A stretch of DNA of 32,000 nucleotides from Ferroglobus placidus DSM 10642. Its GTDB lineage: Archaea; Halobacteriota; Archaeoglobi; Archaeoglobales; Archaeoglobaceae. Positions 5,340-31,948 of this stretch are shown here, one piece after another. The notes beneath the pieces were generated by a model. The model was not told where the DNA came from, did no database searches, and saw only the letters and a list, made by a program, of their open reading frames with translations. Within the stretch, counting starts at the first letter, position 1, and every line of letters starts with the position of its first letter. Made by a program: the position numbers and the translations under genes. The DNA lies in NCBI RefSeq assembly GCF_000025505.1, contig NC_013849.1, positions 450,001-482,000 on the forward strand, given 5' to 3'.

Positions 5340-5825
5340 ATGTGGGCCGTCCACGCAGGTCCATGGTGGGAACCAAAGATTCTCAGGGTTTTCAAAAACA
5401 GGGAGGATGCTGAGAAGGGAAGGGTAGTTCTTGCATACGAGCTTGCTCGGAAAAGAGCGATAGATCCCCTCGACGAGATAGGGAGCTGTCTGGACGATCT
5501 CGGAGTGCTTGAGCTCGAAGCGGAAAAACCACCCTCCGATGAGGAGGTGCTGGGCATTCTGAAGGATACCACAACCTCTGCTTTCGAGGAGGGGCTTGCT
5601 GGTGCATTGAATAACATGCGCACCCTGCTCGATGCAGTGGCAGAGCTATACGATCCAGACGCAATTCTGCAGAAGATTGCAGAGGGTGTGAAAAAGTACA
5701 GGGGGAATTCGAAGCACATCCCGATTACCAGCAAAGCTCTCGACGACTTCATTTTTGAGGTTGCAGACGCACTCGGAATTTCGGAGGAAAGGGTGAAGAA
5801 GGTGCTGCTTCCCGCAATTCTGTAG
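5340..5825 (+). CDS. hypothetical acidic protein with conserved C-terminal tail (..GISEERVKKVLLPAIL)
   Basis: ORF with a GTG-ATG start at 5337/5340 after gagggaggg. The C-terminal ~55 aa resemble those of the 10085 and 10552 proteins (DAILQKIAEGVKK / DDILHAVAEGLKA). Ends in the shared tail motif. Confidence 0.7.
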   Translation: MWAVHAGPWWEPKILRVFKNREDAEKGRVVLAYELARKRAIDPLDEIGSCLDDLGVLELEAEKPPSDEEVLGILKDTTTSAFEEGLAGALNNMRTLLDAVAELYDPDAILQKIAEGVKKYRGNSKHIPITSKALDDFIFEVADALGISEERVKKVLLPAIL

Positions 5826-5918
5826 GACTGCTGAGAACTCTTTTCTGAATCGAGAAGGTGTTAGGCTTGTTACTCTGTAGTTGTGTTTTGCGTTTGGATT
5901 TGTTTGGGAGGTGGTAAG

Positions 5919-7325
5919 GTGCACGAGCAAGACATGTTCAAACTACCTCCAAGAGAGAGGGTGAAGAAGGCAAGGGTAAAACTCCTGAGAGAGAAGCCGT
6001 TTTTCGGCTATGCTTTGATGCACATCCCTTTGGTGGCAAAGGATGATCCAAAGCCTAAGGGCCCGAAGATCGTCTACAACCCCGATTTTGTAGAGAAGCT
6101 TGACGACGATGAGCTCCAGGCAGTTCTCTGCCACGAACTGCTCCATTATCTGTTGATGCACACCAAAAGATCAAAGGAGATGCGCAGAAAAGAGAGAGAG
6201 GGGACGCTCAATGAATACGACAGGAGGAGGAACATTGCTGAAGACATTGTGGTGAATGCCCTCCTCACAAAGAATGGATTTAAGCTCCCGGAATCGAAGG
6301 TGATAATCAGCGGTAATGAGATAAAGGTGAGGCAGGGTGCAATTGTTCCTCAGCTTGACTACAGAACCGGCAAACTGGTTGTGAGGATGAGGGATGCAGA
6401 GGGCAAGTTATACGAGATATTTGACCCAGAGCAGAAGTCAGCTGAGGAGGTTTACTGGGAAATAAAGGACTTTGCCGTGGGCGATGATGGTAGCGATGAG
6501 GATGACACAATGTACTTCTCGGATGATGAGAGCTACGACGACAGCGAGGAGAGTAGAAGTAGAAGTGGTGGTGGTAGCAGCAGCAGAGGTGACCGTGGCA
6601 GAAAAGACAGAGAAAGTAAAGGAAAAGGAAAAGGGGAAGTTAAGGATAAAGATAGAAAGGACACGGAAGCTGGGAGTGATGGCGGCAATGACGGCAGTGA
6701 CAGCAGAGTTAAATCTCCCGCACAACTGCTGAGCGAGGCTTACAACTACGCCAAAATGCAGGGCAAGGATCCGGCAGGGTTTGACAGGCTGGTTGAGAAG
6801 GCTTTGAAACCAAAGATCAACTGGAAGGCACTGTTAAGGCAGCACGTATCCAAGATGGTACCCCACGACTACAGCTTCCTCAAGCCGAGCAGGAAGAGCC
6901 CGCCGAACATTATCCTGCCCGGGATTGTTAAGGGAGAGAGCATTGAGGGCATTGTTGCTGTTGATACATCCGGATCGATAAGCGATGAAGAGCTTTCCCA
7001 GTTTTTATCGGAGATAAGATGGATCGCCAGAAACTACCCATCAATCAACATAACGCTTGTGAGCTGCGATGCAGCAATCCATACAGAGGAGCAGATAAGG
7101 AGCAGATACGAGCTTGATAAGTTCAAGCCGAAGGGTGGAGGGGGAACTGACTTCAGACCCGTGTTTGAGCTTGCAGCAAAGAAGAGGGCAAGGCTGGTCA
7201 TATACTTCACAGACGGCTACGGCTCATTCCCCGAGAGAAAGCCAAGATTTTCAACAATCTGGGTTGTGTCCGAGCAGGGAGCTCCGGAATCTCATTTCCC
7301 GTTCGGCAAAGTCATCAAGATGTGA
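5919..7325 (+). CDS. putative metallopeptidase (HExxH) plus VWA-like domain protein, DUF2201-type partner of MoxR ATPase
   Basis: HExxH in LCHELLHYLLMH. The C-terminal VWA-like region has AVDTSGSIS ... GGGGTDF ... IYFTDGYG. A ~75-aa Asp/Ser/Gly/Lys-rich low-complexity insert sits between the domains. GTG 5919 occupies the exact cassette position (gaggtggtaagGTG, 5908-5921). Confidence 0.85.
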   Translation: MHEQDMFKLPPRERVKKARVKLLREKPFFGYALMHIPLVAKDDPKPKGPKIVYNPDFVEKLDDDELQAVLCHELLHYLLMHTKRSKEMRRKEREGTLNEYDRRRNIAEDIVVNALLTKNGFKLPESKVIISGNEIKVRQGAIVPQLDYRTGKLVVRMRDAEGKLYEIFDPEQKSAEEVYWEIKDFAVGDDGSDEDDTMYFSDDESYDDSEESRSRSGGGSSSRGDRGRKDRESKGKGKGEVKDKDRKDTEAGSDGGNDGSDSRVKSPAQLLSEAYNYAKMQGKDPAGFDRLVEKALKPKINWKALLRQHVSKMVPHDYSFLKPSRKSPPNIILPGIVKGESIEGIVAVDTSGSISDEELSQFLSEIRWIARNYPSINITLVSCDAAIHTEEQIRSRYELDKFKPKGGGGTDFRPVFELAAKKRARLVIYFTDGYGSFPERKPRFSTIWVVSEQGAPESHFPFGKVIKM

Positions 7326-7331
7326 GGTACC

Positions 7332-7886
7332 ATGACAGACTGGGTTCAATTCTCATTAAAAATGCTGGAGAGAACCTGGAAAGAGAACTACAAAAGAATC
7401 TCAGTCACATGGGTCTACGAGTCTGCAGTCCCGGACGAGATCGGAAAAATAACGTACGTAGAGATATGTGAAAGAGAGATAAACAGCCAAAAAGACCTTC
7501 AGAGATGGCAAGAGAGGTTGCAGATGTATCCTTTAGAGCTAGTATCTTTTCTTGATGAAAATGAAGATATGAGGAACTTCAAAGATATACTCGACGATCT
7601 GAAGAGATGCGAAAGATTTAGAATTGATGCCTGTATTAAGATTGTCAAAAAAGTCAAAGAAAGGCTGTATCTCGCCACACTACTTGGAGATAGTTATTTG
7701 CTTAAACTGCTCCCTGAAGGCAGAAAACAATTAGTATTTGACGTCTTTCCAGACAGAAAATATCAATGGGTCAGGCTACACTCGGACTCCGAAGACGATA
7801 TCTTCACCGACACAGTTCTTATAAAAGATAAAAGAGAGATGTTATTCGAATGTAGTATCGCTGTTTTTGTAATTTATGTTTATTAA
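7332..7886 (+). CDS. hypothetical protein (184 aa), low-GC block
   Basis: Long ORF with ATG 7 nt after the upstream stop. AT-rich codon usage differs from the flanking genes. No shared tail. Confidence 0.6.
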   Translation: MTDWVQFSLKMLERTWKENYKRISVTWVYESAVPDEIGKITYVEICEREINSQKDLQRWQERLQMYPLELVSFLDENEDMRNFKDILDDLKRCERFRIDACIKIVKKVKERLYLATLLGDSYLLKLLPEGRKQLVFDVFPDRKYQWVRLHSDSEDDIFTDTVLIKDKREMLFECSIAVFVIYVY

Positions 7887-7903
7887 AGAGGAGGTGATGT
7901 GTG

Positions 7904-8962: not shown

Positions 8963-9030
8963 TCTTTTTAACATTAGTTCATTATTTAAGCTTTTGAGGT
9001 TAAAGTTGTGGTGGAAAAAGAGGTGGTGGG

Positions 9031-10040: not shown

Positions 10041-10084
10041 TTTGTTGTGGTTTTGGTGTTTGTTGAAATCTAGAGGTGGTGTGC

Positions 10085-10537
10085 ATGGGGAGTGTGACTA
10101 ATACAGCGATCTGTCCGGTATGCGGGGAGGAGTACTGGTACGATTATGATACAAGAACCGGAACCACCACAAAGCTCTCATCCTGTGCATGCGACCGTGA
10201 GATAGAATGCATGAGAGAATTCATCAGGATGAAAGGGCTAAAGGATGAGTTCAGGGAGTTCATGAGGGAGAGGGAGAAGGAATACTGGCATGACTGGATT
10301 GTTGAGAGGGGTGAAGTGGCGTATGATGTACAGGAGTTTCTTGAATCTCTCAAAGAGCGCATTGAAAGTATACAGGAGTTCCTGGGCACAGACGACATAC
10401 TGCACGCTGTGGCGGAGGGATTGAAGGCGGTGGGATGTGGCCCGCAGGAACTGGATAAGGTCGTGAGGGAGCTTGCAGAACTTCTTGGAGGAAGTGGAGA
10501 GGCGGTCAGGAAAAAGATGCTGGCTGCACTGCTTTAG
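10085..10537 (+). CDS. zinc-ribbon protein with conserved C-terminal module and tail (..AVRKKMLAALL)
   Basis: ATG 10085 follows gaggtggtgtgc. N-terminal CPVCGEEYWYDYD...SSCAC. The C-terminal ~50 aa are paralogous to the next gene. Confidence 0.75.
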   Translation: MGSVTNTAICPVCGEEYWYDYDTRTGTTTKLSSCACDREIECMREFIRMKGLKDEFREFMREREKEYWHDWIVERGEVAYDVQEFLESLKERIESIQEFLGTDDILHAVAEGLKAVGCGPQELDKVVRELAELLGGSGEAVRKKMLAALL

Positions 10538-10551: not shown

Positions 10552-10806
10552 TTGCCAATTCTTCCTCTCCATCCCTTCGCCTTGGGACTCTATGCTGACC
10601 TCTCAGCCTGGCTGAAAAGTGTTGAAGAGCATGTTGACGAGCTCCTTTCTGAAGGAGGCGATGAGTTGCTGGAAATCGTGGCGGAGAGCTTGAAGGAGAC
10701 AGGGTGCGACCCGGAGGAGCTGGATGAAACTGTGAGGGGGCTTGCAGAGCTGCTCGGTGAAAATGAGGAAGTAGTCAGAAGGAAAATCCTTGAGAAGATT
10801 CTGTAG
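10552..10806 (+). CDS. small protein, paralog of the C-terminal module of the upstream gene, with tail (..VVRRKILEKIL)
   Basis: TTG start sits exactly at the cassette position (gggtggtagtTTG, 10542-10554). LEIVAESLKETGCDPEELDETVRGLAELLGENEEVVRRKILEKIL aligns with LHAVAEGLKAVGCGPQELDKVVRELAELLGGSGEAVRKKMLAALL. Confidence 0.7.
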   Translation: MPILPLHPFALGLYADLSAWLKSVEEHVDELLSEGGDELLEIVAESLKETGCDPEELDETVRGLAELLGENEEVVRRKILEKIL

Positions 10807-12621: not shown

Positions 12622-12700
12622 ACCTTGACAATGCTTTTATTAATTAAAGAAGGAAGAGAACACGGTTTTTGGATTTTAAGGCAGATAGTTGGGTGAGAAA

Positions 12701-13303
12701 ATGTCATGGGAGACGCTTGTTGTGGGATCTTTAGCCTTCAAATCCGGAACTCCTGAAGAGATCAAGTTACAGATTCTTGAGGAGCTCGAAGAGGTGCTGG
12801 AAACAACGATAGAGTATGATGCAAGGTGGCAGGAGTGGAAATTTGAGGACGTTAACTGGACATCACACGTCTCTGAAGAAAAAATAAGGAAGGTTTACAA
12901 TAAATGGAGGCCTTTCTTCACCAGATTTTCAGTATCGCTGTACTACCTATCTGAAGCAGATTACAGCGAGCACGATGAGGCTGAAGATCAGGATGCAAAG
13001 GCAATTCTGGAGGGAATTGTAGATTCTCTCCTGAGAGGGGAGAATGACGGAGATTTGGGTGAGGAGGAAAATAGCGTGGGCGAGGTGCTCGAACTCCTTA
13101 CAAAGTTTGTGAGGGGGGTGAAGGACAGAGATGTAGTGCGTGAGGTGCTTACACCAAAAATTGACAGAATAGCAGAAGTCATTGCAGAGAGAGGAGGGAT
13201 TGAGAGGGAAAAGATGCCTGTGGTTCTGGAACTTATTGGTGTTCTGGAGGAAATGAACATTCCGGCGGAGGGGCTCAAGAAAACCCTGCTTGAGGCCGCG
13301 TAA
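12701..13303 (+). CDS. hypothetical acidic protein with tail-like C-terminus (..GLKKTLLEAA)
   Basis: Same frame as track ORF 12689..13303. ATG 12701 follows gggtgag. An AT-rich TATA-like stretch, cttttattaattaaag, lies about 55 nt upstream. Confidence 0.65.
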   Translation: MSWETLVVGSLAFKSGTPEEIKLQILEELEEVLETTIEYDARWQEWKFEDVNWTSHVSEEKIRKVYNKWRPFFTRFSVSLYYLSEADYSEHDEAEDQDAKAILEGIVDSLLRGENDGDLGEEENSVGEVLELLTKFVRGVKDRDVVREVLTPKIDRIAEVIAERGGIEREKMPVVLELIGVLEEMNIPAEGLKKTLLEAA

Positions 13304-14644: not shown

Positions 14645-15298
14645 GTGGTTGGTGTGTTTAGTGCAAACTCCCCCGTGTTTAGCGCAAACCCCTCTCAGAG
14701 AGATTACGTAAAGATCTGCAAACCAGCGTTCTTCTCTAACAGCATACCCGAGAACAACCTGCTTTTCAGCCTCCTCCTGGATGGTAGCAGTGACAGCAGC
14801 AATCATTCAACCGAGAGAGCTGAAGAGTACGGAGAGAGATTCTGGAGGCTTGCGGGAGAGAGGCATACGCTGATCTGCTACGATATTGGAGATCGCTTAA
14901 TCCTGGAACGCGTGGAGGAATGCCACCACGACGACTCAATTCTCGACGAGCTATATGCTGCTGCCAGCATTCTCTCCGAAGCCGGGTTGAAGAGGAAGCA
15001 GGAGTTCTTTGAGAGGATTGGGGGAGAGAAGGTTAGAGAATTTATTGCGAAGCACTCCGACTACTTCATTGAGATCTTTGAATCCGAGGATGACGAGGTT
15101 ATGGGAGTGGCCACGACAATCATCAACTCTCCGGCTCCTGTGCTCTGCCAGCTTCTGCACGTTCTGACGGATGCAGAGGATGGAGAGAAGTGCGAAGCTG
15201 CTGCGAGGGTTGTTTCTGCTCTCGGTGGAGAAAGGCTTGTGGCTGTTCTGGGAAGCGACTTCACGCTGAGGAGAAGACTTCTTCCGTATCTGATCTGA
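14645..15298 (+). CDS. hypothetical protein with tail (..LRRRLLPYLI); start uncertain
   Basis: The ORF has only GTG candidates (14645, 14654) after gaggtgg. Its first ~15 codons are a 21-bp tandem DNA repeat, so the true start may be further downstream. The C-terminal half looks like a normal acidic helical protein. Confidence 0.55.
   Translation: MVGVFSANSPVFSANPSQRDYVKICKPAFFSNSIPENNLLFSLLLDGSSDSSNHSTERAEEYGERFWRLAGERHTLICYDIGDRLILERVEECHHDDSILDELYAAASILSEAGLKRKQEFFERIGGEKVREFIAKHSDYFIEIFESEDDEVMGVATTIINSPAPVLCQLLHVLTDAEDGEKCEAAARVVSALGGERLVAVLGSDFTLRRRLLPYLI
14654..14695. repeat. 21-bp direct tandem repeat x2 (gtgtttagYgcaaac + C-rich spacer)
   Basis: gtgtttagtgcaaac at 14654-14668 and gtgtttagcgcaaac at 14675-14689, each followed by a C-run. 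A TATA-like tttataat at 14623-14630 lies about 25 bp upstream. Confidence 0.7.
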
Positions 15299-15322: not shown

Positions 15323-15457
15323 ATGCTGGTAATGAGCATGCTTAAAGGATTGCACGTCGTGAAGAGCGAGGAGCTAGATTGGCTCACAACTTTTGAGAAT
15401 TATCTGTGGGATCGAGAAGATGAAAAGCCAGGAGTTGAGAGAGGATGTCCGAATTAA
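15323..15457 (+). CDS. possible small ORF (44 aa)
   Basis: ATG is preceded by taggtga. It encodes MLVMSMLKGLHVVKSEELDWLTTFENYLWDREDEKPGVERGCPN and overlaps the next start by 13 nt. It is below the ORF-track size cutoff. Confidence 0.3.
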   Translation: MLVMSMLKGLHVVKSEELDWLTTFENYLWDREDEKPGVERGCPN

Positions 15458-15894
15458 CAGAGGTGCAGTTCTGCAAGAACTGCTTGAGCTGCAGGTATAT
15501 AGTCAGGGGGAGAAGCTGGGAGGGCTATTACGAGTGGGAGCGTCTCGGCTTCATTGATCAGCGCTCGTATGAAGATGGCATGATGGAAGCGGTTTGCAGC
15601 AGGTGTGGTGGTGAAGAGTTCATAGTTGTGTGGACATCGGAGAACATTGAGGGGATTATTGAATCGGCCCTGCAGAGATACCGGTTAGATAGCAAAGACC
15701 ACTTCGAGGATGTTGCTCTTGCAGCGGTTCTCCTGGCCTCTGCAGGAAAAGGAGGGGCAGAGCTACGACAGTACGATTTTCTCAGCGATCTGTGGGTCGG
15801 AGAGGATTTCGAGGATTTTGAAGACCTGCTTTCCAGAGCCCCGAAACAGCAGCTGGAGAGAGCGAAAAGGGCTCTCCTGGGCATTCTCCTGTAA
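15445..15894 (+). CDS. zinc-ribbon protein, AAGKG family, with tail (..AKRALLGILL)
   Basis: CKNCLSC...CSRCGGEEF plus ALAAVLLASAGKG, paralogous to 11893..12621. Confidence 0.7.
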   Translation: MSELTEVQFCKNCLSCRYIVRGRSWEGYYEWERLGFIDQRSYEDGMMEAVCSRCGGEEFIVVWTSENIEGIIESALQRYRLDSKDHFEDVALAAVLLASAGKGGAELRQYDFLSDLWVGEDFEDFEDLLSRAPKQQLERAKRALLGILL

Positions 15895-18344: not shown

Positions 18345-20882
18345 ATGATGGAGGTAAGGTTGGATTCCGGTTCCTGTTCTGAGAGGATTAGCTGGAATTT
18401 TGAGCTCAACGTGATAAAGGAGTACCTCAGCAGGTTCTACTACTCGGATTTTGCATGCATCCGAGAGTATGTGGCGAACGCAATAGCTGCCCAGCATGCT
18501 GCAGGAGTAAAAGATGCGATTCATGTTGAAATAACTCCCGGGAAAATTGTTGTGGAGGACAGGGGCATAGGGATAAGCAGGCAGAAGTTCGAAGAGGTTT
18601 TCATGTGGTTCGGGAGGAGCAGCAATGCGGAGCTTGAGGGTGTGCAGGGCAGGCTCGGTTTAGGGGCCAAGTCATTCATGATGCTGACAGGAGATACAGG
18701 GAAAGTTGTGATGAAAACAAAGTCGAGGGAGACTGGAGAGTCCTACACAGCAGTTCTCACAGCGACGGGAGCGGAGATAGTGGAGAGTGAGGGAAAGGAG
18801 GAATTTGGTACGAGGTTCGAAATCTACCCAGAGACTCCTCTGAGCCCTGAGAAGCTATCTGACTTCTACAGCAAAGTTGCTATGCACTTCGACTTCTCCA
18901 GGATTCCGGTGCATGTTAAGGTGTATGCGGACGAGCCCTTCAGGGTGGTCAAAACAGGAAGAGAGATCAGTGTTGAGTGGGTTGAGGTCGAGGATGATGG
19001 ATATAGGTGGAAGTGGTGGTTTGCAAGGAGTATTGAGGCTGTTTTCGGAATCCAGAACCACCAGATAGAGATCATTGAGGACAATGCAGTCTATGAGCTC
19101 GGAGTAATGAAGGGCAAGCAGAGAAACTATGGAGTAGTGGTTGTTGGTGATGTCAGAGTAGACAAAACATTCGAGGACAACCTCTTCATCAGGATAAAGG
19201 CGGAGGATGGCCGAAAAATAGAGATGCTTGGTGTGGAGGTGAGAGTTCCAGAACCATTACCAAACAGAGATGAGTACAAGGGCCTTGATGATTTTCTGAT
19301 GTTTGTCGGACTGCAGTACAGGATAAGGAAGTTCATAGAGAAAGGATACGACAGATTCCTCAACTCCAGCGTCTTGGACATTATTCGGCATGCCCGCCTG
19401 AAGGAGCTTGAGAAAGAGATGCGCCACATCAAAGATGCCGCCAGGAGCTGGAGAACATACGATGAGAGAGCTCTTGCAGCAATTGAGAACGCCCTCCCCG
19501 GATTTGCAAGGCTTGAGAAAACAGTTCGGATTTTGCTCACAGAACTGCCGGCATACGGCAGGTGGGGCTATCTGGTTAGGAACAGGAGGAGGGCCGTTGA
19601 AGTTGCAACCGTCATAAGGTATGCTCAGGGTGGGGAGCAGGTAGGGTATCTCACAAAGAGGCCGGATGCAAGAAAGGAGAGAGTGCTGGATGAGAAGGAC
19701 ATCTACGCAGTCTACACTGAAGATCCGGAGATAATCGCTTTCCTTGAGAGAAATGGAGTGAAGGAGCTGAAGGTGAAGGACGAGAGGAGGAGAGTGAAGA
19801 TCTACGAGCATGTATGGGGTGAGTTCGAGGGAGGAAATCCGGAATACGTGGAGATTGACAACCTTGTTTACAGGTGGAGTAGCGAATGGAACGAAAGTGG
19901 TAAGATAATCATATTCACCACAAAGGTGAGCGATCTCAAGGGCAAATACCTCCCGCCCTGCTTAGTTGTAACCGGTGGTAAGAAGCTGTACAGTGAACTC
20001 AAGGAGGTGTTCGGCGACTTCCTGATGACGTACGATGAGTGGGAGGAGATGGTCAGAGAGACTACGGTGATTACGGATGGCCAGAAGGTTATGGCCCTCA
20101 GCGATCTCGATGAGCTTGAGCCCGGTGAGAGGGGCTACCTTGTTGAGACCGCTTATCCGGAGTTGATCCCTGCCCTCAGGAAGGTCAGCGGGATCTACAC
20201 GTTTGTAGATGTGACGGACTACACGATCGCACGAAACCTCTTTAATGCCAAAAAGCTGGAGAAGGTGTTTGGAGAATGGACCAGATATGCATACGAGTGG
20301 GATCTTAACTTCATGGCTGGAAAGATTGGTAGAGAGGCTGCAGAGGCGATACACCTCCTCCTCAAACACGGGAAAGACTACTCCTGCATTGATAAAGAGC
20401 TGGTTGAGATAGCATGCAGGCATGCAGGAGTTAAAGGCAAGACAATGGAGGAGCTGAAGGAGGTTGCAAAACCAGTGGTGGAAAGGATAGTGGAGAAGTA
20501 CGGAACGCTCAGGCTCGGCAGAAAGTTCCCGGTTGAGGCAATCTTGTACAGAGGGTCAGTGGGCGGGTTTGACGGGATCACGGCAGGAATAAAGCTTGCA
20601 AACCCGCTCATCCCAACATTCACATACGAAATGGCAGGAAAAGCGGGTGAAGAGGGGCTGAAGCTGAAGAGGCTCCAGAGCATGCTTGGCATATTCGGAG
20701 CGCTTGTATGGTATGTCGAGAAGGGAGGGACGCTGGATAAGCCGGATGGAGAGAAAATGATGGCGGAAGAGGTTGTGAGGAAGCTCCTGCCAGCATTTGT
20801 ACGGTCAGACAATGACTGGAAACAGTTAGTGAAAATTGCACCGAGAGTGTCAAAGAAACTGGCACTGGCAGCCCTGCTCTGA
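18345..20882 (+). CDS. GHKL-superfamily (Hsp90/MORC-like) ATPase, 845 aa, with tail (..VSKKLALAALL)
   Basis: Bergerat-fold motifs are present in order: N-box IREYVANAIAAQHA, G1 VVEDRGIGISRQKFEEVF, G2 GRLGLGAKSFMML, then VVMKTKS. The ~650-aa C-terminal region has no recognisable domain. Confidence 0.85.
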   Translation: MMEVRLDSGSCSERISWNFELNVIKEYLSRFYYSDFACIREYVANAIAAQHAAGVKDAIHVEITPGKIVVEDRGIGISRQKFEEVFMWFGRSSNAELEGVQGRLGLGAKSFMMLTGDTGKVVMKTKSRETGESYTAVLTATGAEIVESEGKEEFGTRFEIYPETPLSPEKLSDFYSKVAMHFDFSRIPVHVKVYADEPFRVVKTGREISVEWVEVEDDGYRWKWWFARSIEAVFGIQNHQIEIIEDNAVYELGVMKGKQRNYGVVVVGDVRVDKTFEDNLFIRIKAEDGRKIEMLGVEVRVPEPLPNRDEYKGLDDFLMFVGLQYRIRKFIEKGYDRFLNSSVLDIIRHARLKELEKEMRHIKDAARSWRTYDERALAAIENALPGFARLEKTVRILLTELPAYGRWGYLVRNRRRAVEVATVIRYAQGGEQVGYLTKRPDARKERVLDEKDIYAVYTEDPEIIAFLERNGVKELKVKDERRRVKIYEHVWGEFEGGNPEYVEIDNLVYRWSSEWNESGKIIIFTTKVSDLKGKYLPPCLVVTGGKKLYSELKEVFGDFLMTYDEWEEMVRETTVITDGQKVMALSDLDELEPGERGYLVETAYPELIPALRKVSGIYTFVDVTDYTIARNLFNAKKLEKVFGEWTRYAYEWDLNFMAGKIGREAAEAIHLLLKHGKDYSCIDKELVEIACRHAGVKGKTMEELKEVAKPVVERIVEKYGTLRLGRKFPVEAILYRGSVGGFDGITAGIKLANPLIPTFTYEMAGKAGEEGLKLKRLQSMLGIFGALVWYVEKGGTLDKPDGEKMMAEEVVRKLLPAFVRSDNDWKQLVKIAPRVSKKLALAALL

Positions 20883-20937
20883 CTTTTTCGGGTTTTTTGC
20901 TGAGTTAGGGGTTCAGTTGGATTTGGAGGTGGTTAGA

Positions 20938-21759
20938 TTGGTCGGATTGATTGTGAAAAAGGTAGAGGATGTGAGAATAGACTGTGCTGAGTGGGAAAAA
21001 TCCTATACAGTCTCCGGCAGAGTGCTTGCAGGTGATGGGGGTGAAACCAGTGAATGGGTGTGGAAGGAGTTTGATGATGCTCTGCACAAGGCCATTGACA
21101 GAATAAACTCCTCCCACCCGTCTCACTTCAGCGGTTACAGCCACTCTCTGGCTGGTAATGTGATCATCACCCTGAACTCTGTCCTCAAAGATCACGAACT
21201 CAGAGTGCTGTCCCGAGAGCTCGGGGCACCGATACGGTTCCGAAAACACTACAGGGCTTCAGGAAACAAGAGTTGGAGGGGCTGGAAGCTGAATGCTGAA
21301 GCATTCATCAGTTTTGCGGCCAGAGGAAATGAAGATACTGCAGAGATCAGCGTTAAATTCTGGGAAGAGTTTTCGACATCTGCCTACGATTACACAATAG
21401 AGCCGCAGATCCACGTGAGGAACTTCTACCGCACAATCACCCGGGAAAGAGCAGCGGACTACATGAAGGATCTGGAGAGGCTGAAACTCCTGAACAAAGC
21501 CGAATTCAAGGAGTGTGAGGTCATAGCTGTCACAAAAAAGAGTGGAAGGTATCTGGTTCTCAAGGAGCTTTTCGAGGACAGCAATGACAGGCTGTACATC
21601 TTCAGAGTTGAGGGAAGAGTAGGAAAGGTGGGAGCCAGGTACTACGTGGATGTTGCAGGAAAAACGCTATGGACTCCGGGCAAAAAACTCCTGTCCAGGG
21701 ATTTTGTAGCAGAACCTCCTCTGGAGGTTAAGAAGGAGTTGCTCATGCTTTCTATTTAG
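20938..21759 (+). CDS. hypothetical protein (273 aa) with tail (..EVKKELLMLSI)
   Basis: Same frame as track ORF 20836..21759, but that start overlaps the GHKL gene. TTG 20938 sits at the cassette position (gaggtggttagaTTG, 20926-20940). Confidence 0.65.
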   Translation: MVGLIVKKVEDVRIDCAEWEKSYTVSGRVLAGDGGETSEWVWKEFDDALHKAIDRINSSHPSHFSGYSHSLAGNVIITLNSVLKDHELRVLSRELGAPIRFRKHYRASGNKSWRGWKLNAEAFISFAARGNEDTAEISVKFWEEFSTSAYDYTIEPQIHVRNFYRTITRERAADYMKDLERLKLLNKAEFKECEVIAVTKKSGRYLVLKELFEDSNDRLYIFRVEGRVGKVGARYYVDVAGKTLWTPGKKLLSRDFVAEPPLEVKKELLMLSI

Positions 21760-23563: not shown

Positions 23564-23701
23564 ATGGCTGAAGAGGTAATTGTCAGAATCCCTAAACAGC
23601 TCATACAACAACTCAGGGAGTTATTCCCCGAGCTCGGAGACGAGAGTGACGCAACAGTTGTCAGAATAGCATTACGCAAGCTGATTCTTGAAAAATCTTA
23701 A
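23564..23701 (+). CDS. ribbon-helix-helix (CopG/Arc-like) DNA-binding protein, 45 aa
   Basis: Not in the ORF track because it is under 60 aa. agaggtgacagaaATG start. MAEEVIVRIPKQLIQQLRELFPELGDESDATVVRIALRKLILEKS has the beta-strand (VIVRIP), helix, G, helix pattern of RHH proteins. Confidence 0.6.
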   Translation: MAEEVIVRIPKQLIQQLRELFPELGDESDATVVRIALRKLILEKS

Positions 23702-23739
23702 TTTTTATTGATTGTTGGATCTTAATTTTTATTGTTGGA
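23697..23739. repeat. tandem direct repeat cttaatttttattg(attg)ttgga x2
   Basis: Copies at 23697-23719 and 23721-23739 span the RHH stop codon and the spacer before the next gene. Confidence 0.7.
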
Positions 23740-23763
23740 GAAATTATAGTAGGAGGGGATACT

Positions 23764-24738
23764 ATGTCTGAGTCCAAATTCTGGTTGATAAGTGGTTTTC
23801 ACGGTAACCGGGATTTTTCGCAGCAGATAGGCGGCCCCGTGATTGATATCCCGCACTGCGATTATTATGCGGTCTATGAGGAGTACACCATGAACTTAAC
23901 AGACCTGTGCAGGCCTGATCCTGATTTAAGCGAGACTGAAGCGGCTGAAATGTTTGCAGAGCTTGCAAACGCTTATCTTGATGAGGTGACTGAGAAGCTG
24001 AAACTTCTCGTAGAATACCTGTACGATGACGTGTTCTTCATTGTGAGTAACCGCGACTATCCCAGCATGCTGGTAGTAGATATATATGCTGTAGCTCCCG
24101 TCGAACCAGAAGACTACTTACGACAGGAATACGATTATTTTATAGATGCAGAAACACTTGTCAAGATTGCGAAGGCTTATGACAGGCTGAACAACGAGGA
24201 GGAAGCTATAAAGGCGGTTCTTGGTAACATATCTGAGGAGGAGCTGGAGAGATGGATAGGCTTTGACTGGCAGGACGTGCTGGATGCGGCAGAACGCCAC
24301 GAAAACGCAATGAAGGAGCTCGAAGATTTCAGGAGGAGGTGCAGGGTTGAAAAGGGCTATCTTGTGGATGTGGATGTTACAGGGCTGTACACCCTTCACC
24401 AAGGAGAATACAGGGATGAGAACATTGTTCTGTTCAGACCAAGAGAGGATAGCAGCCTGAGATACATAATGGACAGGAAGACGCTTCGAATCTGGAGCAT
24501 CCAGCACTCTCCTCTTTTTGAACACAGACCGGTTCTGCACCTCTGCAGGTACATTGAGGCCTGTTTGAAGTCAGAGGCAGAGGCAGATGCCGAAAAGGAG
24601 GCCAGGAAAAGAGAGGCGCTTGAGGCTCTCTTCAACTCGCTTGGAGAGCCGATCGATCTCGCAGGACGAGAAGAGCAGTTTGCAGAGTGCCTCATTGGAA
24701 TTGGACTGAAAAAGGAGGCCTTAGCGCTCACGCTGTGA
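23764..24738 (+). CDS. hypothetical acidic protein (324 aa) with tail (..GLKKEALALTL)
   Basis: taggaggggatactATG start. Long ORF with no recognisable domain. Confidence 0.7.
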   Translation: MSESKFWLISGFHGNRDFSQQIGGPVIDIPHCDYYAVYEEYTMNLTDLCRPDPDLSETEAAEMFAELANAYLDEVTEKLKLLVEYLYDDVFFIVSNRDYPSMLVVDIYAVAPVEPEDYLRQEYDYFIDAETLVKIAKAYDRLNNEEEAIKAVLGNISEEELERWIGFDWQDVLDAAERHENAMKELEDFRRRCRVEKGYLVDVDVTGLYTLHQGEYRDENIVLFRPREDSSLRYIMDRKTLRIWSIQHSPLFEHRPVLHLCRYIEACLKSEAEADAEKEARKREALEALFNSLGEPIDLAGREEQFAECLIGIGLKKEALALTL

Positions 24739-24813: not shown

Positions 24814-25449
24814 GTGGGTTATACGGTGGATATTATCGAATGCTCTCTTACTGCAAAATCTGTAGAGGAGGCGAAGAAGATCATCGAAGAGTTCGAGCGA
24901 GAAGGTGTGTTTGAGATCGATGAGGAGGGACACATAAGGCCCACTGACTGGTCTTTCAACTGGAGTAGTGACGAATACCTGTTCTTTGCTGCTTTAAGCA
25001 GGGTTGCAGAAGGATATATAGCGTTCAGAGGAGAGAACGGAGAAATCTGGAAGATTGAGCTGAAAGATGGAGAAATCATAGACTACACTGCAGAAATCGT
25101 TTACAGAAAGACCGGTTCAGCCAGGATCCATGAGGACTTTTTCAAGAAAAAGATGGTGGCCAATGAGAGATATGTTGCTGCTGTAACAGAGTTTGATACG
25201 GTAATTGCATACGACAGGAAACACAGGCAATGGCTGAACATCCGGCTCTACGGATCTCTGGCAGATCTTGAGATTCTTGAGGCCATTATCCGCGGGGAGG
25301 ATCTGAGTTTGCAGAGCGAGGAGCAGTGGAGCACAAAGGCTTGGCTTGACCGCGAAACTATTGAGGAATTTGCCCGAAAAGTTCTGAGCTCAGACATTGA
25401 CCAAAAAATAAAAAATGAGGTAAAGAAGGAATTGCTAACCTTACTTTAG
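24814..25449 (+). CDS. hypothetical protein (211 aa) with tail (..EVKKELLTLL)
   Basis: GTG start follows aaggaggtgggaaa. A GT-rich spacer lies upstream (ctgtttgatttgggtttttgaacttgattt). Confidence 0.7.
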   Translation: MGYTVDIIECSLTAKSVEEAKKIIEEFEREGVFEIDEEGHIRPTDWSFNWSSDEYLFFAALSRVAEGYIAFRGENGEIWKIELKDGEIIDYTAEIVYRKTGSARIHEDFFKKKMVANERYVAAVTEFDTVIAYDRKHRQWLNIRLYGSLADLEILEAIIRGEDLSLQSEEQWSTKAWLDRETIEEFARKVLSSDIDQKIKNEVKKELLTLL

Positions 25450-26652: not shown

Positions 26653-26787
26653 ACTACCACCTTCTTGTTACTACTACCATAAGAATAATACACTAAAAAC
26701 ATAAAATATTTATGGTTTCCCGGATTCTTGCGTTTGTGGATGTGGGTTTTTGTTTGTTGTGTGCTGGACAGATGGTAGGTGGTATAT

Positions 26788-27828
26788 ATGGAGACTGCAG
26801 GCAGGTTGAAAGCAGGGCTCGTGGACAGGAGTAAGAACGCTAGAGGAGGTGAAAGTGAAGGAATAGGTGTGAATGAGAACAGAAAGAGTGGAAGGAGCAA
26901 GAGCGTGAATGATGGTGGGGGATGGAGTGGAGAAGACGGTACATGCCCGGAGTGCGGAAGCCCGAGACTTGTCACGGACCACAGTCGCGGAGAGGTTTTC
27001 TGCCAGGACTGCGGGATTGTTGTTGAAGATGCTCGCCTTGACTACGGCCCGGAGTGGAGGTCATATGACAGTGAGCGTGGAATGCAGAGGGCAAGGGCAG
27101 GGCCTCCAGTTGTGCTCACTCTCCATGACAAGGGGTTTACCACAACAATAGGGAACGATAGAGACAGCCACGGCAATCCACTCTCCCCCAAAACAAGAAT
27201 CCAGTTTACCAGACTGAGAAAGTGGCAGAGCAAAATCAGAACAAACAGCTCTGCAGAGAGGAATCTTGTACGATCACTGATGGAGCTTGAGAGAATCACG
27301 TCTTCCCTTGGGCTGCCTAAAAGCATAACGGAGAGGGCGGCACTCATCTACAGAAGGGTAGTCAGTAATAACCTGACGAGGGGGAGGTGTATAGACAGCA
27401 TTGTTGCCGCTGCAGTGTACGCAGCATGCAGGGAGGCAGGACTGCCGAGGACGCTGGATGAAGTTGCAGCCCACTCCAGTGTGGATAAAAGGTCTGTTGG
27501 AAGAGCGTACAGATTCCTTGCAAGAACGCTCGGGCTGAAGCCTGCTCCAATCACCTCTACAGACTACGTGCCGAAGATCTGCGCAGCACTTGGAGTGAGC
27601 GGGGAGGTGCAGGAGAGGGCTCTGGAAATCGTAAATGAGGCTGAGAAAAGCATGGTTAGCAGAAGTCCAGCAGGTGTGGCTGCGGCTGCAGTTTACATTG
27701 CATCAATCCTGCTTGGAGAGAGGAGAACGCAGAGGGAAGTGGCAGGAGTTGCAGGAGTCACAGAAGTCACGATAAGGAACTGCTACAAGATGATAACTGA
27801 CAGACTGGGAATAGAGCTGCTCCTTTAG
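26788..27828 (+). CDS. tfb: transcription initiation factor B (TFIIB homolog) with ~50-aa Gly/Ser/Asn-rich N-terminal extension
   Basis: Zn-ribbon CPECGSPRLVTDHSRGEVFCQDCGIVVED, B-linker region GPEWRSY, and two cyclin-like repeats (ERAALIYRRVV...SIVAAAVYAACREAGLPRTLDEVA; AGVAAAAVYIASILLGERRTQREVAGVAGVTEVTIRNCYK). ATG 26788 follows aggtggtatat (cassette). Confidence 0.92.
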   Translation: METAGRLKAGLVDRSKNARGGESEGIGVNENRKSGRSKSVNDGGGWSGEDGTCPECGSPRLVTDHSRGEVFCQDCGIVVEDARLDYGPEWRSYDSERGMQRARAGPPVVLTLHDKGFTTTIGNDRDSHGNPLSPKTRIQFTRLRKWQSKIRTNSSAERNLVRSLMELERITSSLGLPKSITERAALIYRRVVSNNLTRGRCIDSIVAAAVYAACREAGLPRTLDEVAAHSSVDKRSVGRAYRFLARTLGLKPAPITSTDYVPKICAALGVSGEVQERALEIVNEAEKSMVSRSPAGVAAAAVYIASILLGERRTQREVAGVAGVTEVTIRNCYKMITDRLGIELLL

Positions 27829-28690: not shown

Positions 28691-29608
28691 ATGAGGGACG
28701 AGTTGGACGAGCTCGTTCACCAGGCTTTCCGTGAGGCATGCAGTGGAGAGGGCTGCAGCATTGAGAAAGGGGATGGCAGGTTCGTGGTCAGGCACGACAC
28801 GGATGTTCTCTCTGTACGCTGGCCGGAAATAGAAATTCTTAACACCGGGCTCAAAACAATGCGCGTTCTCGTGAAAGCATTACACCTGCTGCAGATCCGC
28901 TGCGAGGGCACCTTGAACTTCCTTCTGAAGCTGTACGACCGTGCAGTCATGCAGTGCCTGCCTGTTGTGGAGGGGGCAGTCATCGACCTGGAAAAGAGGA
29001 GGGCGGAAGTGTCTGGAGGGAAGCAACCTGGTCAGACAGAGCTTGTGGATATGCTGAACAGGCTGAACGATTTTTTCCTGAACGCTGCAGCAAAGTACGG
29101 GCAGATCACCGCAAATACTCTGTACAGCTGCATCCTGGACACACACCTCCTGACAGATCCCGAAGACTTATCATCTCCCATTTCATTTCCCGGCTTCAGA
29201 GACCTGGAGAGCATCATGGCCGCTGCAACAGCAGTTGCGGGGAAGAGGCTGTGGTTTGTGAAGTTTCAGAACAGCATTCTTGCAAAGGTGCTGGCAAAAT
29301 CCCTGCCCCTGCATCCTCTCTCTGAGAGCGCAATGTGCCTCCTCATCACACCAGACGGAGTTTCAAGGCTGGACGTGGCAAAAACACCGCATTATGCAGC
29401 GGCAAATCTTGTCGGAGTGCTCTGGGATGTTGCGCGGAATGAGAGAAGAGTGAAGTACAGCTGGAGGAACGAAAAATCCGCAAAGCTGCTCAAGGAGTTC
29501 ATTGAAAGGGCGAGGACTGTGGAGGTTGCGGGCAGGGATCAGATAATTGGCAGGTTTGTCGAGAGTCTGCCTGAAAAGGCAAGGAAATCACTTCTAACTC
29601 TTATCTGA
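28691..29608 (+). CDS. hypothetical protein (305 aa) with tail (..EKARKSLLTLI)
   Basis: Long ORF with no recognisable domain. Followed by tgaggttttttta. Confidence 0.65.
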   Translation: MRDELDELVHQAFREACSGEGCSIEKGDGRFVVRHDTDVLSVRWPEIEILNTGLKTMRVLVKALHLLQIRCEGTLNFLLKLYDRAVMQCLPVVEGAVIDLEKRRAEVSGGKQPGQTELVDMLNRLNDFFLNAAAKYGQITANTLYSCILDTHLLTDPEDLSSPISFPGFRDLESIMAAATAVAGKRLWFVKFQNSILAKVLAKSLPLHPLSESAMCLLITPDGVSRLDVAKTPHYAAANLVGVLWDVARNERRVKYSWRNEKSAKLLKEFIERARTVEVAGRDQIIGRFVESLPEKARKSLLTLI

Positions 29609-29630: not shown

Positions 29631-30101
29631 ATGGAGGTGGCAGGATTGAGAACGGTTGTAGCTGAATTCTGCGCGGAGTGTCTGGAGTCAACCCTGAAAC
29701 AGTCTTTTTTCACGGATGAGAAGGAGTGCAGCGAGTGCCTGTCCAAAGTTTACTTCAAAGCCCGCATTCCGCAGGAAATAGCTGAGGAGATCCGGAGACT
29801 TCATGACTTGCACCAGCTTGAATACGGCCCGCTCACAATTCTTTACGCTGCAGCCGGACTGGTGAGGCTTGAGTACGCCGATGCAGAGCCAGAGCCAATG
29901 AGTGAGGAGGAGGTTCTTGAGAGGATAGAGGAAGGGATAAGAGGTGTAGAGGGATATGCGTATGACATACGTAACTTTGTCGATATCATAGAGGTTATAG
30001 AGCATGCAGAGTCCGAAGCAAAAATAGATAAGGACAGGCTCAGAAAACTCCTGAAAGTTGTTCAGAGACTGAAGAAGGTTGTTCTGGCGGAGATATTGTA
30101 A
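29631..30101 (+). CDS. zinc-ribbon protein related to the AAGKG family, with tail (..RLKKVVLAEIL)
   Basis: CAECLES...CSECLSK, then LTILYAAAGLVRLEY. The start is ATG 29631, or in-frame TTG 29646, which sits at the cassette position (gaggtggcaggaTTG). Confidence 0.65.
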   Translation: MEVAGLRTVVAEFCAECLESTLKQSFFTDEKECSECLSKVYFKARIPQEIAEEIRRLHDLHQLEYGPLTILYAAAGLVRLEYADAEPEPMSEEEVLERIEEGIRGVEGYAYDIRNFVDIIEVIEHAESEAKIDKDRLRKLLKVVQRLKKVVLAEIL

Positions 30102-30144
30102 TTTGGTTTTTGTAGTTTTTTGTTCTGCTCGGGAGTGAGTGAGC

Positions 30145-30594
30145 ATGCGCTGTGCTGAGGTGATAAAAGAGGCTGAAGAAGGCAACACTGAAGTGGTGCT
30201 GGAGCTGGAAGACATCTTCGAATCTTCGAATTTGTCTCATGAATTTGACAGAAAAGTCCAGGAGAACATCGAATACATTTTGAGGAGGAATTGCCTGTGG
30301 AGGGAGGGGCTGAGGACTGCTGTCCTAATCTGCAAAATCGCTCCAGACCCTGATGACACATTTTTTGGATATTTTCAGGTCTTTGATGGTACCGAGCTCG
30401 TTGCGAGAGGAGAGTTCGGCGGCACATTCGTCGTTCTGGACGAGAGAGCTTTTGAGAAACCGGATGTGGAGGGCATCGAGATCGTAGAGCTAACAATTTC
30501 GCTGCCACCGGTGGATGCAAAAAAGCTCTTTCTCCTTGACATCTCTGATCTGGGTGCTGAAGAAAAAGCTAAGCTTCTCTCCTGGGTTTTGTAG
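30145..30594 (+). CDS. hypothetical acidic protein (149 aa) with tail (..EEKAKLLSWVL)
   Basis: Same frame as track ORF 30139..30594. ATG 30145 follows gggagtgagtgagc. A GT-rich spacer lies upstream. Confidence 0.65.
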   Translation: MRCAEVIKEAEEGNTEVVLELEDIFESSNLSHEFDRKVQENIEYILRRNCLWREGLRTAVLICKIAPDPDDTFFGYFQVFDGTELVARGEFGGTFVVLDERAFEKPDVEGIEIVELTISLPPVDAKKLFLLDISDLGAEEKAKLLSWVL

Positions 30595-30621
30595 TTTTTG
30601 GTTTTTTCTCGGGGTGAGATT

Positions 30622-31383
30622 ATGAGTGTGAGCGCGGGTATGAGCGAGAGTGTGAGTGTGGTGGAAAGGATGATGGATAAGCTTCAGCTGCTGAATGATC
30701 TCTGGAAAAGGGTTAAAGTGCTGCCAGAAATCACAGAACTCGCCAATAAAGTAGTGATAGCTGAATTCGGTGTTGAGGAACACTCATCCCCCTTCAGTTA
30801 CGCAGGATATAATATAAGGGCAATTCTGGATGATGTGAGGAAAGAGTTGTTCAGATTTGTTGCAGATCTGCTTGTTGAGGACACGAATGTCAGAGTGGAC
30901 TTCGCTGACCTGTATGACCGCTTTAAAGACTTCGATGCGGTAGAGGTGGCCAGATACATTGAGGAGAAGTACCTTCGCCAGGCAGATGAGCTGGCATACA
31001 GAGAAATCGTAAGCAGGGCAAGAGCTCTTCTGCCGGCACATAATGTAAGCCTGGAGAAGATCCTGAAAGGGAGAAAACTTGTCCTGCAGTACTACCTTCA
31101 CTGGAGTTACGGAAAACCATACATACACGACTTTCTTGAGGCCGCATCAGCCCTCGAAAAGCTGGCAAAGATCGTTCTCTGGAGAGTTAAGCCATCCACA
31201 GCCAGGGGGCACGCAATTTACAACGCATACTGGAACGACACAACTGATGAGGAGGTTTTGCAGAAGAAGGAGCTTGGCGGCCCGATCGAGGCTGTGAAGG
31301 TACACAAGAACGGGAACATCTACTTCTGGTTTAAGAGCGAGGAGGATGCAAAAAAGGTTGCGGAGGTGCTCCTGAGTGAGTGA
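30622..31383 (+). CDS. hypothetical protein (253 aa) with tail-like end (..DAKKVAEVLLSE)
   Basis: Same frame as track ORF 30598..31383. ATG 30622 follows ggggtgagatt. No recognisable domain. Confidence 0.65.
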   Translation: MSVSAGMSESVSVVERMMDKLQLLNDLWKRVKVLPEITELANKVVIAEFGVEEHSSPFSYAGYNIRAILDDVRKELFRFVADLLVEDTNVRVDFADLYDRFKDFDAVEVARYIEEKYLRQADELAYREIVSRARALLPAHNVSLEKILKGRKLVLQYYLHWSYGKPYIHDFLEAASALEKLAKIVLWRVKPSTARGHAIYNAYWNDTTDEEVLQKKELGGPIEAVKVHKNGNIYFWFKSEEDAKKVAEVLLSE

Positions 31384-31567
31384 ACCTGAACCTGAATATG
31401 AATTTGAGGCCATGTGGCGAAGGGAGATGCAGGAGTGGTCAAAGATTATCGAGGAGCTGGATAAAAGGTCGTTCGAGCAGGTAATAACAATAAATTCCGG
31501 AATCATCAAAGAACTGGTCTCACACTCCACAAAAATTAAAAAGCGGTTGATAGAAGTAGTACTGTAG
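31376..31567 (+). CDS. small acidic protein (63 aa) with tail (..KIKKRLIEVVL)
   Basis: GTG 31376 lies 7 nt after ggaggtg (31362-31368) and overlaps the upstream stop (GTGAGTGA). ATG 31412 is an alternative start. Confidence 0.55.
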   Translation: MSEPEPEYEFEAMWRREMQEWSKIIEELDKRSFEQVITINSGIIKELVSHSTKIKKRLIEVVL

Positions 31568-31594
31568 ATTTAACACAATTCGAGGTGTTTTTCC

Positions 31595-31948
31595 ATGACA
31601 GCTGTGCCATCTGGTGCCGCAGCTGCAGCCGCTGGGGGGGCGGCAGCAAGAGCAGCAGCAAGTGCGCAGAAGTTCACTTTTGGCTTTCTCATCTTTGAGC
31701 CTGAGGAATTTCTGAAGCTCGTGAAAACTGCAAGAGAAACAGATGGCAGGGCAGTCGTCATTCTTGTAAAAAAACGAAAGGGAGTGGTTAACAGAAAAGA
31801 TGAGTACATCTACGCCGCCAAATACGCTGATTTCACAATCCTGACCAGAAGCGAAACACCTCTAGCACTGCCGTCAAAAACCGAGCTGATTGTGAGCAGA
31901 GACATAGTACTGCCGGTAGCAGTCATGCACGCTTTGAAGATGCTTTGA
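31595..31948 (+). CDS. hypothetical protein (117 aa), Ala-rich N-terminus, weak tail (..VMHALKML)
   Basis: ORF with start context gaggtgtttttccATG. N-terminal SGAAAAAAGGAAARAAASA is low complexity. Confidence 0.55.
   Translation: MTAVPSGAAAAAAGGAAARAAASAQKFTFGFLIFEPEEFLKLVKTARETDGRAVVILVKKRKGVVNRKDEYIYAAKYADFTILTRSETPLALPSKTELIVSRDIVLPVAVMHALKML

Follow-up and report, generated by a model that had tools for sequence, protein, structure and literature searches.

The CbbQO Rubisco activase consists of a MoxR AAA+ ATPase (CbbQ) and a VWA/MIDAS protein (CbbO) (Tsai et al. 2015, reviewed in PMC5437159). In that review's account, CbbQO depends on the CbbO MIDAS and on an H/KR motif at the C-terminus of the Rubisco large subunit encoded alongside it, and the red-type Rca CbbX threads the C-terminus of RbcL. 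The window analysed here (a stretch of 32,000 nucleotides from a heat-loving archaeon) probably belongs to a mobile gene island centred on chaperones. As in CbbQO, where the target needs a short motif at its C-terminus to be recognised, a MoxR AAA+ ATPase and a VWA/MIDAS partner are encoded beside putative targets. The analogy, which was drawn in a first-pass annotation of the window, is a genuine precedent for a MoxR–VWA pair reading the C-terminus of a co-encoded protein. However, CbbQO has one Rubisco target, whereas the island has many unrelated tagged proteins and only a candidate receptor. The island motif is basic or acidic, Leu-rich and hydrophobic-ending rather than H/KR, and the island contains two MoxR–VWA pairs and an Hsp90-like chaperone without Rubisco.

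The MoxR-vWA-centric ternary conflict systems, with VMAP, iSTAND, FtsH and β-propeller components, were also compared (Kaur et al., eLife 2020, PMC7159879). They share with the island a MoxR–vWA core with a peptidase (an HExxH zincin fused to VWA in the island), many small lineage-specific accessory proteins, and a patchy, mobile distribution. Unlike them, the island is archaeal, and STAND, FtsH and a VWA-fused β-propeller were not detected in it. A C-terminal tag is not described for the ternary systems (PMC7159879), whereas the island has one. In the case of the bicaudavirus ATV, p618 (MoxR) and p892 (VWA) are extracellular tail assembly chaperones (Scheele et al. 2011, via PMC4124505). This is likewise an archaeal MoxR–VWA pair; the assembly of a multiprotein structure is ATV's, and the account in PMC4124505 describes no substrate tag, unlike the island. 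Viral hallmark genes, an integrase and tRNA borders were not found at the island, in contrast to ATV.

When the window ORFs were translated, all of the tails listed in the first-pass annotation were present in place, with some ORF starts off by 3-12 nt (Table 1). Three C-termini that it had ranked as weaker cases (30598-31383, 31595-31948 and 11893-12621) indeed have weaker tails, and the genes of three low-GC blocks have none, as it had stated. The consensus of the 15 tails is Φ-[KR][KR]-x-Φ-L-x-x-Φ-[LI]-COOH; position −5 is L in 14 of them.

Table 1 Tail carriers and other genes of the window (positions counted from its first nucleotide)
Position	Strand	Feature	Tail	Basis
1..657	+	RavA-like MoxR AAA+ ATPase	none	NCBIfam ATPase RavA PRK13531, in-window part
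755..2164	+	ViaA-like VWA partner of RavA-like MoxR	none	NCBIfam RavA stimulator ViaA, E 5e-21; Pfam VWA_2
3603..4871	+	MoxR AAA+ ATPase	none	Pfam AAA_5, weak bpMoxR
5337..5825	+	tail carrier	ERVKKVLLPAIL	translation
5883..7325	+	DUF2201 protein	none	Pfam DUF2201_N + DUF2201; motifs
10076..10537	+	tail carrier, paralog of 5337-5825	AVRKKMLAALL	
10552..10806	+	tail carrier, paralog of 5337-5825	VVRRKILEKIL	
12689..13303	+	tail carrier	GLKKTLLEAA	
13339..14586	+	tail carrier	IRQAVLAAML	
14645..15298	+	tail carrier	LRRRLLPYLI	
15445..15894	+	tail carrier	AKRALLGILL	
18345..20882	+	tail carrier; divergent Hsp90-family chaperone by predicted structure, 845 aa	VSKKLALAALL	
20836..21759	+	tail carrier	EVKKELLMLSI	
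23764..24738	+	tail carrier	GLKKEALALTL	
24814..25449	+	tail carrier	EVKKELLTLL	
26779..27828	+	TFIIB/TFB paralog		Pfam TFIIB, Zn_Ribbon_TF
28691..29608	+	tail carrier	KARKSLLTLI	
29631..30101	+	tail carrier	RLKKVVLAEIL	
30139..30594	+	tail carrier	EKAKLLSWVL	
31376..31567	+	tail carrier, 63-aa protein	IKKRLIEVVL	

The C-termini of the whole genome, one 2.2-Mb archaeal contig, were scanned with regular expressions and an HMM, and the similar proteome-wide frequency that would speak for a general habit was not seen. A strict regex ([KR][KR]x(x)ΦΦ…Φ-COOH) matched 12 of the 44 window ORFs and 21 of 2136 ORFs (1%) in the rest of the genome (Fisher p 2.4e-13); with ORFs under 100 aa excluded, it matched 10/37 in the window (p 1.9e-11). 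With the core regex [LIVMF]L..[LIVMAF][LIVM]$, 9/44 were found against 0.5% (p 1.9e-11), and a generic definition of a hydrophobic C-terminus gave 17/44 against 7.7% (p 2e-8). Genes were called crudely, by a greedy ORF procedure; no plausible rate of miscalling comes near the size of the enrichment. Elsewhere in the genome, strict matches number at most three in any run of 36 consecutive genes, and none lies in the flanks of the window, at 430-450 kb and 482-500 kb of the genome. When an HMM was built from the 15 tails, the ten best hits in the genome were all window C-termini. The interior of the carrier proteins shows no excess of the motif (0.63% of 12-mers, background 0.51%), so its C-terminal placement is specific. 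Judged from sequence, the tails are selected, position-specific peptides rather than products of chance or composition.

The tails are retained in homologous genes of relatives. The five members of the 23764-24738 family, at 42–100% identity, have an invariant K-E-A-L-x-L-x-L, and orthologs of the Hsp90-like protein (ending in APRVSKKIALSTLL) and of the 20836-21759 protein (VEVRKKILELLV in G023) keep theirs. Among orthologs, the tails diverge less than the protein bodies. In the homologous islands of G019, G022 and G023, tails are found on 22-39% of genes against a 7.7% background. The dibasic pair turned out not to be a general feature: related islands fall into two flavours, with basic or acidic residues ahead of the hydrophobic core, and G023 has one island of each type around the same core. 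This division by island type fits a receptor-specific code. Two of the carriers differ in their homologs: that of 24814-25449 in the G007 island has a hydrophobic C-terminus but lacks the basic pair, and for 28691-29608, an orphan, no homologs were found outside its own genome.

The 18345-20882 protein, taken at first for a GHKL ATPase, is encoded and tailed as had been noted, and it has a Pfam HATPase_c_3 match (GHKL ATPase domain). When its AF2 model was searched with Foldseek, the top 50 hits were all Hsp90, TRAP1, GRP94 or HtpG (E 5e-12 to 3e-10). Its identity is thus revised: by its predicted structure, it is a divergent Hsp90-family chaperone, in which the ATPase domain is followed by Hsp90-like middle and C-terminal regions and the tail. 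The final Leu is invariant in the alignment, including the distant G007 homolog. No further Hsp90 is present in the host genome or its relatives. For the 13339-14586 protein, a Pfam search gave no match, and its structural neighbours, beta-propeller-like, are faint.

Two MoxR/VWA modules, also reported earlier for the locus, were identified with Pfam and NCBIfam. The window holds the C-terminal part only of the RavA-like MoxR, whose gene begins 519 bp before the window at genome position 449482 and whose ortholog in the G019 island is 77% identical. Its ViaA-like partner has the MIDAS motif DLSGS and orthologs at 72-79% in G019, G023 (two copies) and G006. The second MoxR (3603-4871) has intact Walker A (GRTGIGKS) and Walker B (...FFDELN) motifs. 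It is paired with the DUF2201 protein, in which a zincin-like metallopeptidase carrying HELLH is joined to a VWA domain whose MIDAS reads DTSGS; 5 homologs conserve the two motifs. The TFIIB/TFB paralog, which has a weak tail-like end (IELLL), is from its sequence a candidate regulator of the island.

SsrA and other C-terminal degron tags are read by AAA+ proteases (ClpXP, PAN–proteasome). The island tails, too, are short, hydrophobic-ending peptides, closing on an invariant L/I, that could engage an AAA+ pore. They may therefore be built-in degrons keeping the island proteins short-lived, degraded either by the PAN–20S proteasome of the host or by the island MoxR and the DUF2201 zinc-peptidase/VWA as a two-part, FtsH-like AAA+ protease, so that the system is held under threshold until induced. 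The conserved HExxH peptidase fused to MIDAS-VWA is likely active and adjoins the MoxR AAA+, and the 'thresholding' conflict systems of Aravind include MoxR–VWA (PMC7159879). We consider this unlikely, as neither HMM nor structure joins MoxR and DUF2201 as a protease and a coded degron on the Hsp90-like chaperone itself would be unusual. To our knowledge, archaea are without tmRNA; unlike SsrA, the tails are gene-encoded, restricted to one island and conserved within each gene family. A second known use of C-terminal peptides is that of eukaryotic Hsp90/Hsp70, in which MEEVD docks on TPR co-chaperones. The island likewise is chaperone-rich and has an Hsp90-family chaperone with a conserved peptide at the position of MEEVD, and the tails might dock co-chaperones or clients to it; the chaperone is tailed too, and the receptor would then be a third, common adaptor. 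This is quite unlikely: a Pfam search of the island proteins gave no TPR or helical-repeat adaptor, the tail is basic and hydrophobic-ending rather than an acidic EEVD carboxylate-clamp motif, and it is common to many non-chaperones.

In the shape of the tail, the earlier interpretation did not hold. AF2 predicts it to be helical, and its basic residues share a face of the helix with two hydrophobic pairs (−6/−5 and −2/−1), but the hydrophobic moment is not above genome background and the tail is not classically amphipathic. There is a very slim chance that the tails are membrane-binding helices, similar to MinD-type targeting sequences with basic beside hydrophobic C-terminal residues, which would tether soluble proteins to acidic archaeal lipids; the acidic flanks in paralogous islands argue against a lipid-charge rule, and apart from the tail the carriers are soluble, acidic proteins. 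An export role has no support either: the carriers lack a signal peptide, and the island has no secretion machinery. What stood of that interpretation were the selected, ortholog-kept tails and the chaperone modules. The chance is also slim that the tails have no protein-level function and reflect common ancestry, for example C-terminal segments of one ancestral module spread by recombination, or a mutational or compositional habit of the island. The island is horizontally mobile with its own composition, and three carriers (5337-5825, 10076-10537 and 10552-10806) are paralogs with a common helical C-terminal domain of ~75 aa ending in the tail. However, the lower divergence of ortholog tails appears to have largely refuted this already, the other carrier bodies are unrelated (an Hsp90-fold protein and α/β proteins among them), internal enrichment is absent, and the tail codons vary from gene to gene, consistent with the earlier claim of selection on the peptide.

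We place a probability of roughly 0.35 on the reading that the C-terminal peptide of ~15 island proteins is a recognition or docking tag for the island's MoxR–VWA module(s). Some points count against it: the G007 island mostly lacks tails despite its MoxR, DUF2201 and GHKL-like homologs, homologs of the 3603-4871 MoxR in the paralogous island type (G019/G023) are themselves tailed (ELIRLIRFLL), which is odd for a receptor, and the tail is weakly amphipathic. It is favoured by the CbbQO precedent and by the candidate receptors: the MoxR, whose Walker motifs are intact, the VWA domains, which conserve their MIDAS, and the protein with an Hsp90-like fold. The island's putative chaperones are the RavA/ViaA-like pair, the MoxR with the zinc-peptidase-bearing VWA protein, and the divergent Hsp90-like protein. 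One of these modules, most likely a MoxR–VWA pair, would bind the tag, which would be gripped, along with its free carboxylate end, by either the MoxR ring or the VWA (MIDAS) domain. As the peptide is rare elsewhere and is kept in related genomes, it is most likely an address tag for the island's own chaperone, by which the tagged proteins would be recruited for assembly into, or remodelling within, a common multiprotein complex.

Each C-terminal tail listed in the first-pass annotation, which had proposed a common terminal peptide on at least 15 otherwise unrelated proteins of the island, is truly encoded. When the C-termini of a genome-wide crude ORF call were compared, a strict regular expression matched 12 of 44 window ORFs and 21 of 2,136 ORFs elsewhere in the genome (Fisher p≈2e-13). 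With a generic hydrophobic-end definition, the tail was found on 17 of 44 window ORFs compared with 7.7% of the rest (p≈2e-8). The enrichment was unaltered when the ORFs were limited to those of at least 100 aa, and any other run of 36 genes in this genome held at most three strict matches. A tail HMM was also scanned genome-wide, and the top ten C-termini all came from the window. The motif thus does not occur at a similar frequency across the host proteome; the window is strongly enriched. A generic thermophile habit at C-termini was rejected as the motif is not genome-wide and the genome background is low. Among internal 12-mers, the tail carriers show no enrichment of the motif (0.63% vs 0.51%), and it is therefore tied to the C-terminus and not to composition. 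The codons of the tails vary from gene to gene, in agreement with the earlier remark that the encoding DNA is not conserved, and a DNA repeat as their source was rejected. We conclude that the tag is real, selected and island-specific.

A position profile was drawn over 15 tails. Basic residues occupy positions −9/−8 in 12-13 of 15, a hydrophobic residue is found at −6 in 12 and at −2 in 13, Leu at −5 in 14, and Leu or Ile at −1 in all 15, giving the consensus Φ-[KR][KR]-x-Φ-L-x-x-Φ-[LI]-COOH (Φ, hydrophobic). The tail had been described as a short amphipathic helix. It is predicted to be helical in two AF2 models, and the hydrophobic pairs −6/−5 and −2/−1 are compatible with one helix face, so this part of the description stands; the hydrophobic moment, however, is not above genome background because the basic residues share the helical face with the hydrophobic pairs.

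In three families, homologs in relatives retain the tail, contrary to the possibility raised earlier that they would not. In the 23764-24738 family (n = 5, 42-100% identity), the K-E-A-L-x-L-x-L columns are invariant. The Hsp90-like ortholog in the relative G023 ends APRVSKKIALSTLL, with 79% identity in the tail vs 58% in the whole protein, and the final Leu is invariant when the distant homolog of G007 is included in the alignment. The ortholog of 20836-21759 ends VEVRKKILELLV. Hydrophobic C-terminal tails are present on 22-39% of genes in the G019, G023 and G022 islands vs 7.7% in the background, on 9% in the source genome's own flanks and on 2% in the distant G007 island. The tails come in two flavours, set by the charge preceding the hydrophobic core. 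Basic tails are found in the source genome and in island A of G023 (contigs C55/C115), and acidic tails with the same Φ-L-x-x-Φ-Φ core (e.g. DEIERLVLAVLV and LEAELLANLI) in G019, G022 and island B of G023 (C51). Both island types thus reside together in G023, with one flavour each; its contigs C55/C115/C92 and C51 carry paralogous islands with their own MoxR, DUF2201, ViaA-like and Hsp90-like paralogs. That the flavour changes from one co-resident island type to the other is a hint that the codes are specific to their receptors.

Three of the carriers (5337-5825, 10076-10537 and 10552-10806) are paralogs with a common helical C-terminal domain of about 75 aa (…AEGLK…ELD..VRELAELLG…), the tail forming its end. 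The bodies of the remaining carriers are unrelated, an Hsp90 fold being among them. The AF2 model of 23764-24738 (pLDDT 61), with its tail helical, had no Foldseek match in PDB at E ≤ 0.001, and 13339-14586 had only faint β-propeller-like structural neighbours in ESM Atlas (TM 0.2-0.3).

When the AF2 model of the Hsp90-like protein (pLDDT 64.5) was searched using Foldseek, the top 50 matches were all members of the Hsp90 family (human and yeast Hsp90, TRAP1, GRP94 and HtpG), with E-values of 5e-12 to 3e-10 over 550-800 aligned columns. The Hsp90 middle and C-terminal domains are present at fold level; in ESM Atlas, the feature matches of the C-terminal region were weak. Pfam HSP90 (PF00183) had no match in the source genome or in 40 relatives. 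Judged by its modelled fold, the protein is an Hsp90-family chaperone, divergent and missed by the Pfam HSP90 model. Most archaea lack Hsp90 (PMC12874294), and its occurrence in this archaeon is unusual.

Genes of the island and its borders (coordinates are window-based unless marked genome)
Feature	Position	Strand	Remarks
DUF6744 protein	genome 447546-448475		just upstream of the RavA-like gene
RavA-like MoxR AAA+	genome 449482-450657	+	NCBIfam RavA; starts 519 bp before the window
ViaA-like VWA protein	755-2164	+	MIDAS DLSGS
Second MoxR AAA+ (AAA_5/MoxR)	3603-4871	+	Walker A/B intact
DUF2201 protein	5883-7325	+	VWA fusion with an HExxH zincin-like peptidase; MIDAS DTSGS
PepSY protein	16533-17024	+	N-terminal hydrophobic segment; within low-GC block
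HTH regulator	17379-17903
Hsp90-like protein	18345-20882	+	845 aa; GHKL ATPase N-terminal domain (HATPase_c_3 at residues 38-130)
HAD-like hydrolase	21782-22192	+	truncated
Big_7 Ig-like domain + Pilin_N protein	25522-26652	−	archaeal class-III signal
TFIIB/TFB paralog	26779-27828	+
C2H2 zinc-finger protein	27838-28194	+

Many island proteins have no known domain. The MoxR, VWA and DUF2201 proteins of the source genome have no tail, while the MoxR homolog of island B has one. The island's own TFIIB/TFB paralog and C2H2 zinc-finger protein suggest island-specific transcription control. The Pilin_N protein is the sole minus-strand gene of the block, and a flanking minus-strand gene (L019:257-1318) encodes a protein with Pilin_N and a Lamin-tail domain. 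Of the 257 residues of the G023 ortholog, the HAD-like hydrolase covers 9-153 alone, and the low-GC block at 22000-24000 appears to have taken the place of its 3' part.

The source genome is a single archaeal contig of 2,196,266 bp (44.1% GC) with an archaeal SSU rRNA. The host is read as a hyperthermophilic non-methanogenic euryarchaeon, probably of the Thermococcales, because reverse gyrase is encoded and methyl-coenzyme M reductase, Cren7 and adenylylsulfate reductase (AprA) were not found in the genome. Around the window, a block of about 40 kb (about genome 448-489 kb) consists of co-directional plus-strand genes with strong positive GC skew, and includes three lower-GC stretches (window 7000-9500, 16000-18500 and 22000-24000). 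Within the GTDB family, some relatives carry homologous islands (G019, G022, G023, G007 and G006), and none was found in two searched genomes of the same genus; neither tRNA nor integrase was found at the borders. When genome contigs were searched for related loci, the Hsp90-like protein had no match and the ViaA-like VWA protein found a single distant bacterial locus (Kofleriaceae, 26%) in which tails are absent. Viral contigs scanned with the Hsp90-like and DUF2201 proteins gave no match. The sequencing runs listed with island DNA are a synthetic metagenome and subsurface or hydrothermal-vent metagenomes, with no RNA run among them. The papers found on DUF2201, MoxR and CbbQO provided context only, and none of them describes the island itself.

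The strongest precedent for the tag is CbbQO, in which the MoxR AAA+ protein CbbQ and the MIDAS-VWA protein CbbO activate Rubiscos encoded in the same clusters; the Rubisco large subunits share a C-terminal motif required for activation, and the author of a review favours binding of the activase to this C-terminus (PMC5437159). Like CbbQO, the island has MoxR-class AAA+ proteins (two) and VWA partners with intact MIDAS (ViaA-like and DUF2201). Many island proteins carry a C-terminal motif, for which target recognition is a candidate role. No Rubisco or other known enzyme was found among the island proteins scanned with Pfam/NCBIfam, and the island is not a member of CbbQO since it has no Rubisco target. 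In the MoxR-vWA ternary conflict systems (Kaur et al. 2020), the third component is VMAP, an inactive STAND, FtsH or a β-propeller fused to vWA. Unlike these, the VWA of the island is fused to a zincin (DUF2201_N) and not to a propeller. STAND and FtsH, the components searched for with Pfam, had no match among the island proteins. The island is thus not a named system of this type, as it has no STAND, FtsH or vWA-fused propeller. The first-pass annotation had also drawn analogies with ESCRT-III MIM, encapsulin cargo peptides and T4SS signals. These were rejected as the defining machinery is absent: among the island proteins, Pfam found no ESCRT-III, Snf7 or MIT domains (Vps4/CdvC docking) and no encapsulin shell (Linocin_M18), and there are no T4SS ATPases (VirB4/VirD4-type).

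Several readings of the tag were weighed. An export signal, as once suggested, is not supported because secretion machinery is absent from the island and the carriers are cytoplasmic-like. A membrane-binding helix is the least likely; the tagged proteins are soluble and acidic (pI 4.2-4.8), with no transmembrane or signal segments. Alternatively, the tail may be a coded C-degron read by a MoxR and zincin-VWA pair or by the proteasome. The HExxH and MIDAS motifs of the DUF2201 protein are conserved in five homologs. The SsrA tag is added in trans by tmRNA, whereas the island tags are gene-encoded; tmRNA is not known from archaea. The tail may also be a docking peptide read via the Hsp90-like chaperone system in the manner of MEEVD. 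Eukaryotic Hsp90 ends in the MEEVD co-chaperone peptide and the island protein ends in VSKKLALAALL instead. AlphaFold-multimer, run with an alignment of the Hsp90-like protein and the 63-aa tagged protein 31376-31567, returned no answer (score 0.00), which is evidence neither way.

By analogy with CbbQO, the tag may act through C-terminal target recognition: one or both MoxR-VWA modules would recruit a set of island proteins via the tag and remodel them, presumably into one complex. A wider reading, to which we assign a probability of roughly one in four, makes the island a self-contained archaeal proteostasis or assembly module, in which the divergent Hsp90 and two MoxR-VWA pairs would read an 'address code' at the C-termini of a dozen island proteins that have no other relationship. 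The basic and acidic Leu-core codes would prevent cross-talk between co-resident paralogous islands, and the whole would be an Hsp90-based network in a lineage otherwise without Hsp90, possibly a defence or conflict system.

If this reading is true, the island would hold a many-client sorting code in C-termini, linked to particular chaperones, which is rare in prokaryotes; the best known of the prokaryotic precedents, CbbQO-Rubisco, has one client. Substrate choice is poorly understood in most MoxR systems, and the island would also offer a tractable model of it in a MoxR-VWA machine. The island, which moves between genomes, adds an Hsp90-family chaperone to the archaea, a domain generally without Hsp90 (PMC12874294). 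Its code apparently differs from one paralogous island to another, which makes tag-receptor co-evolution testable here.
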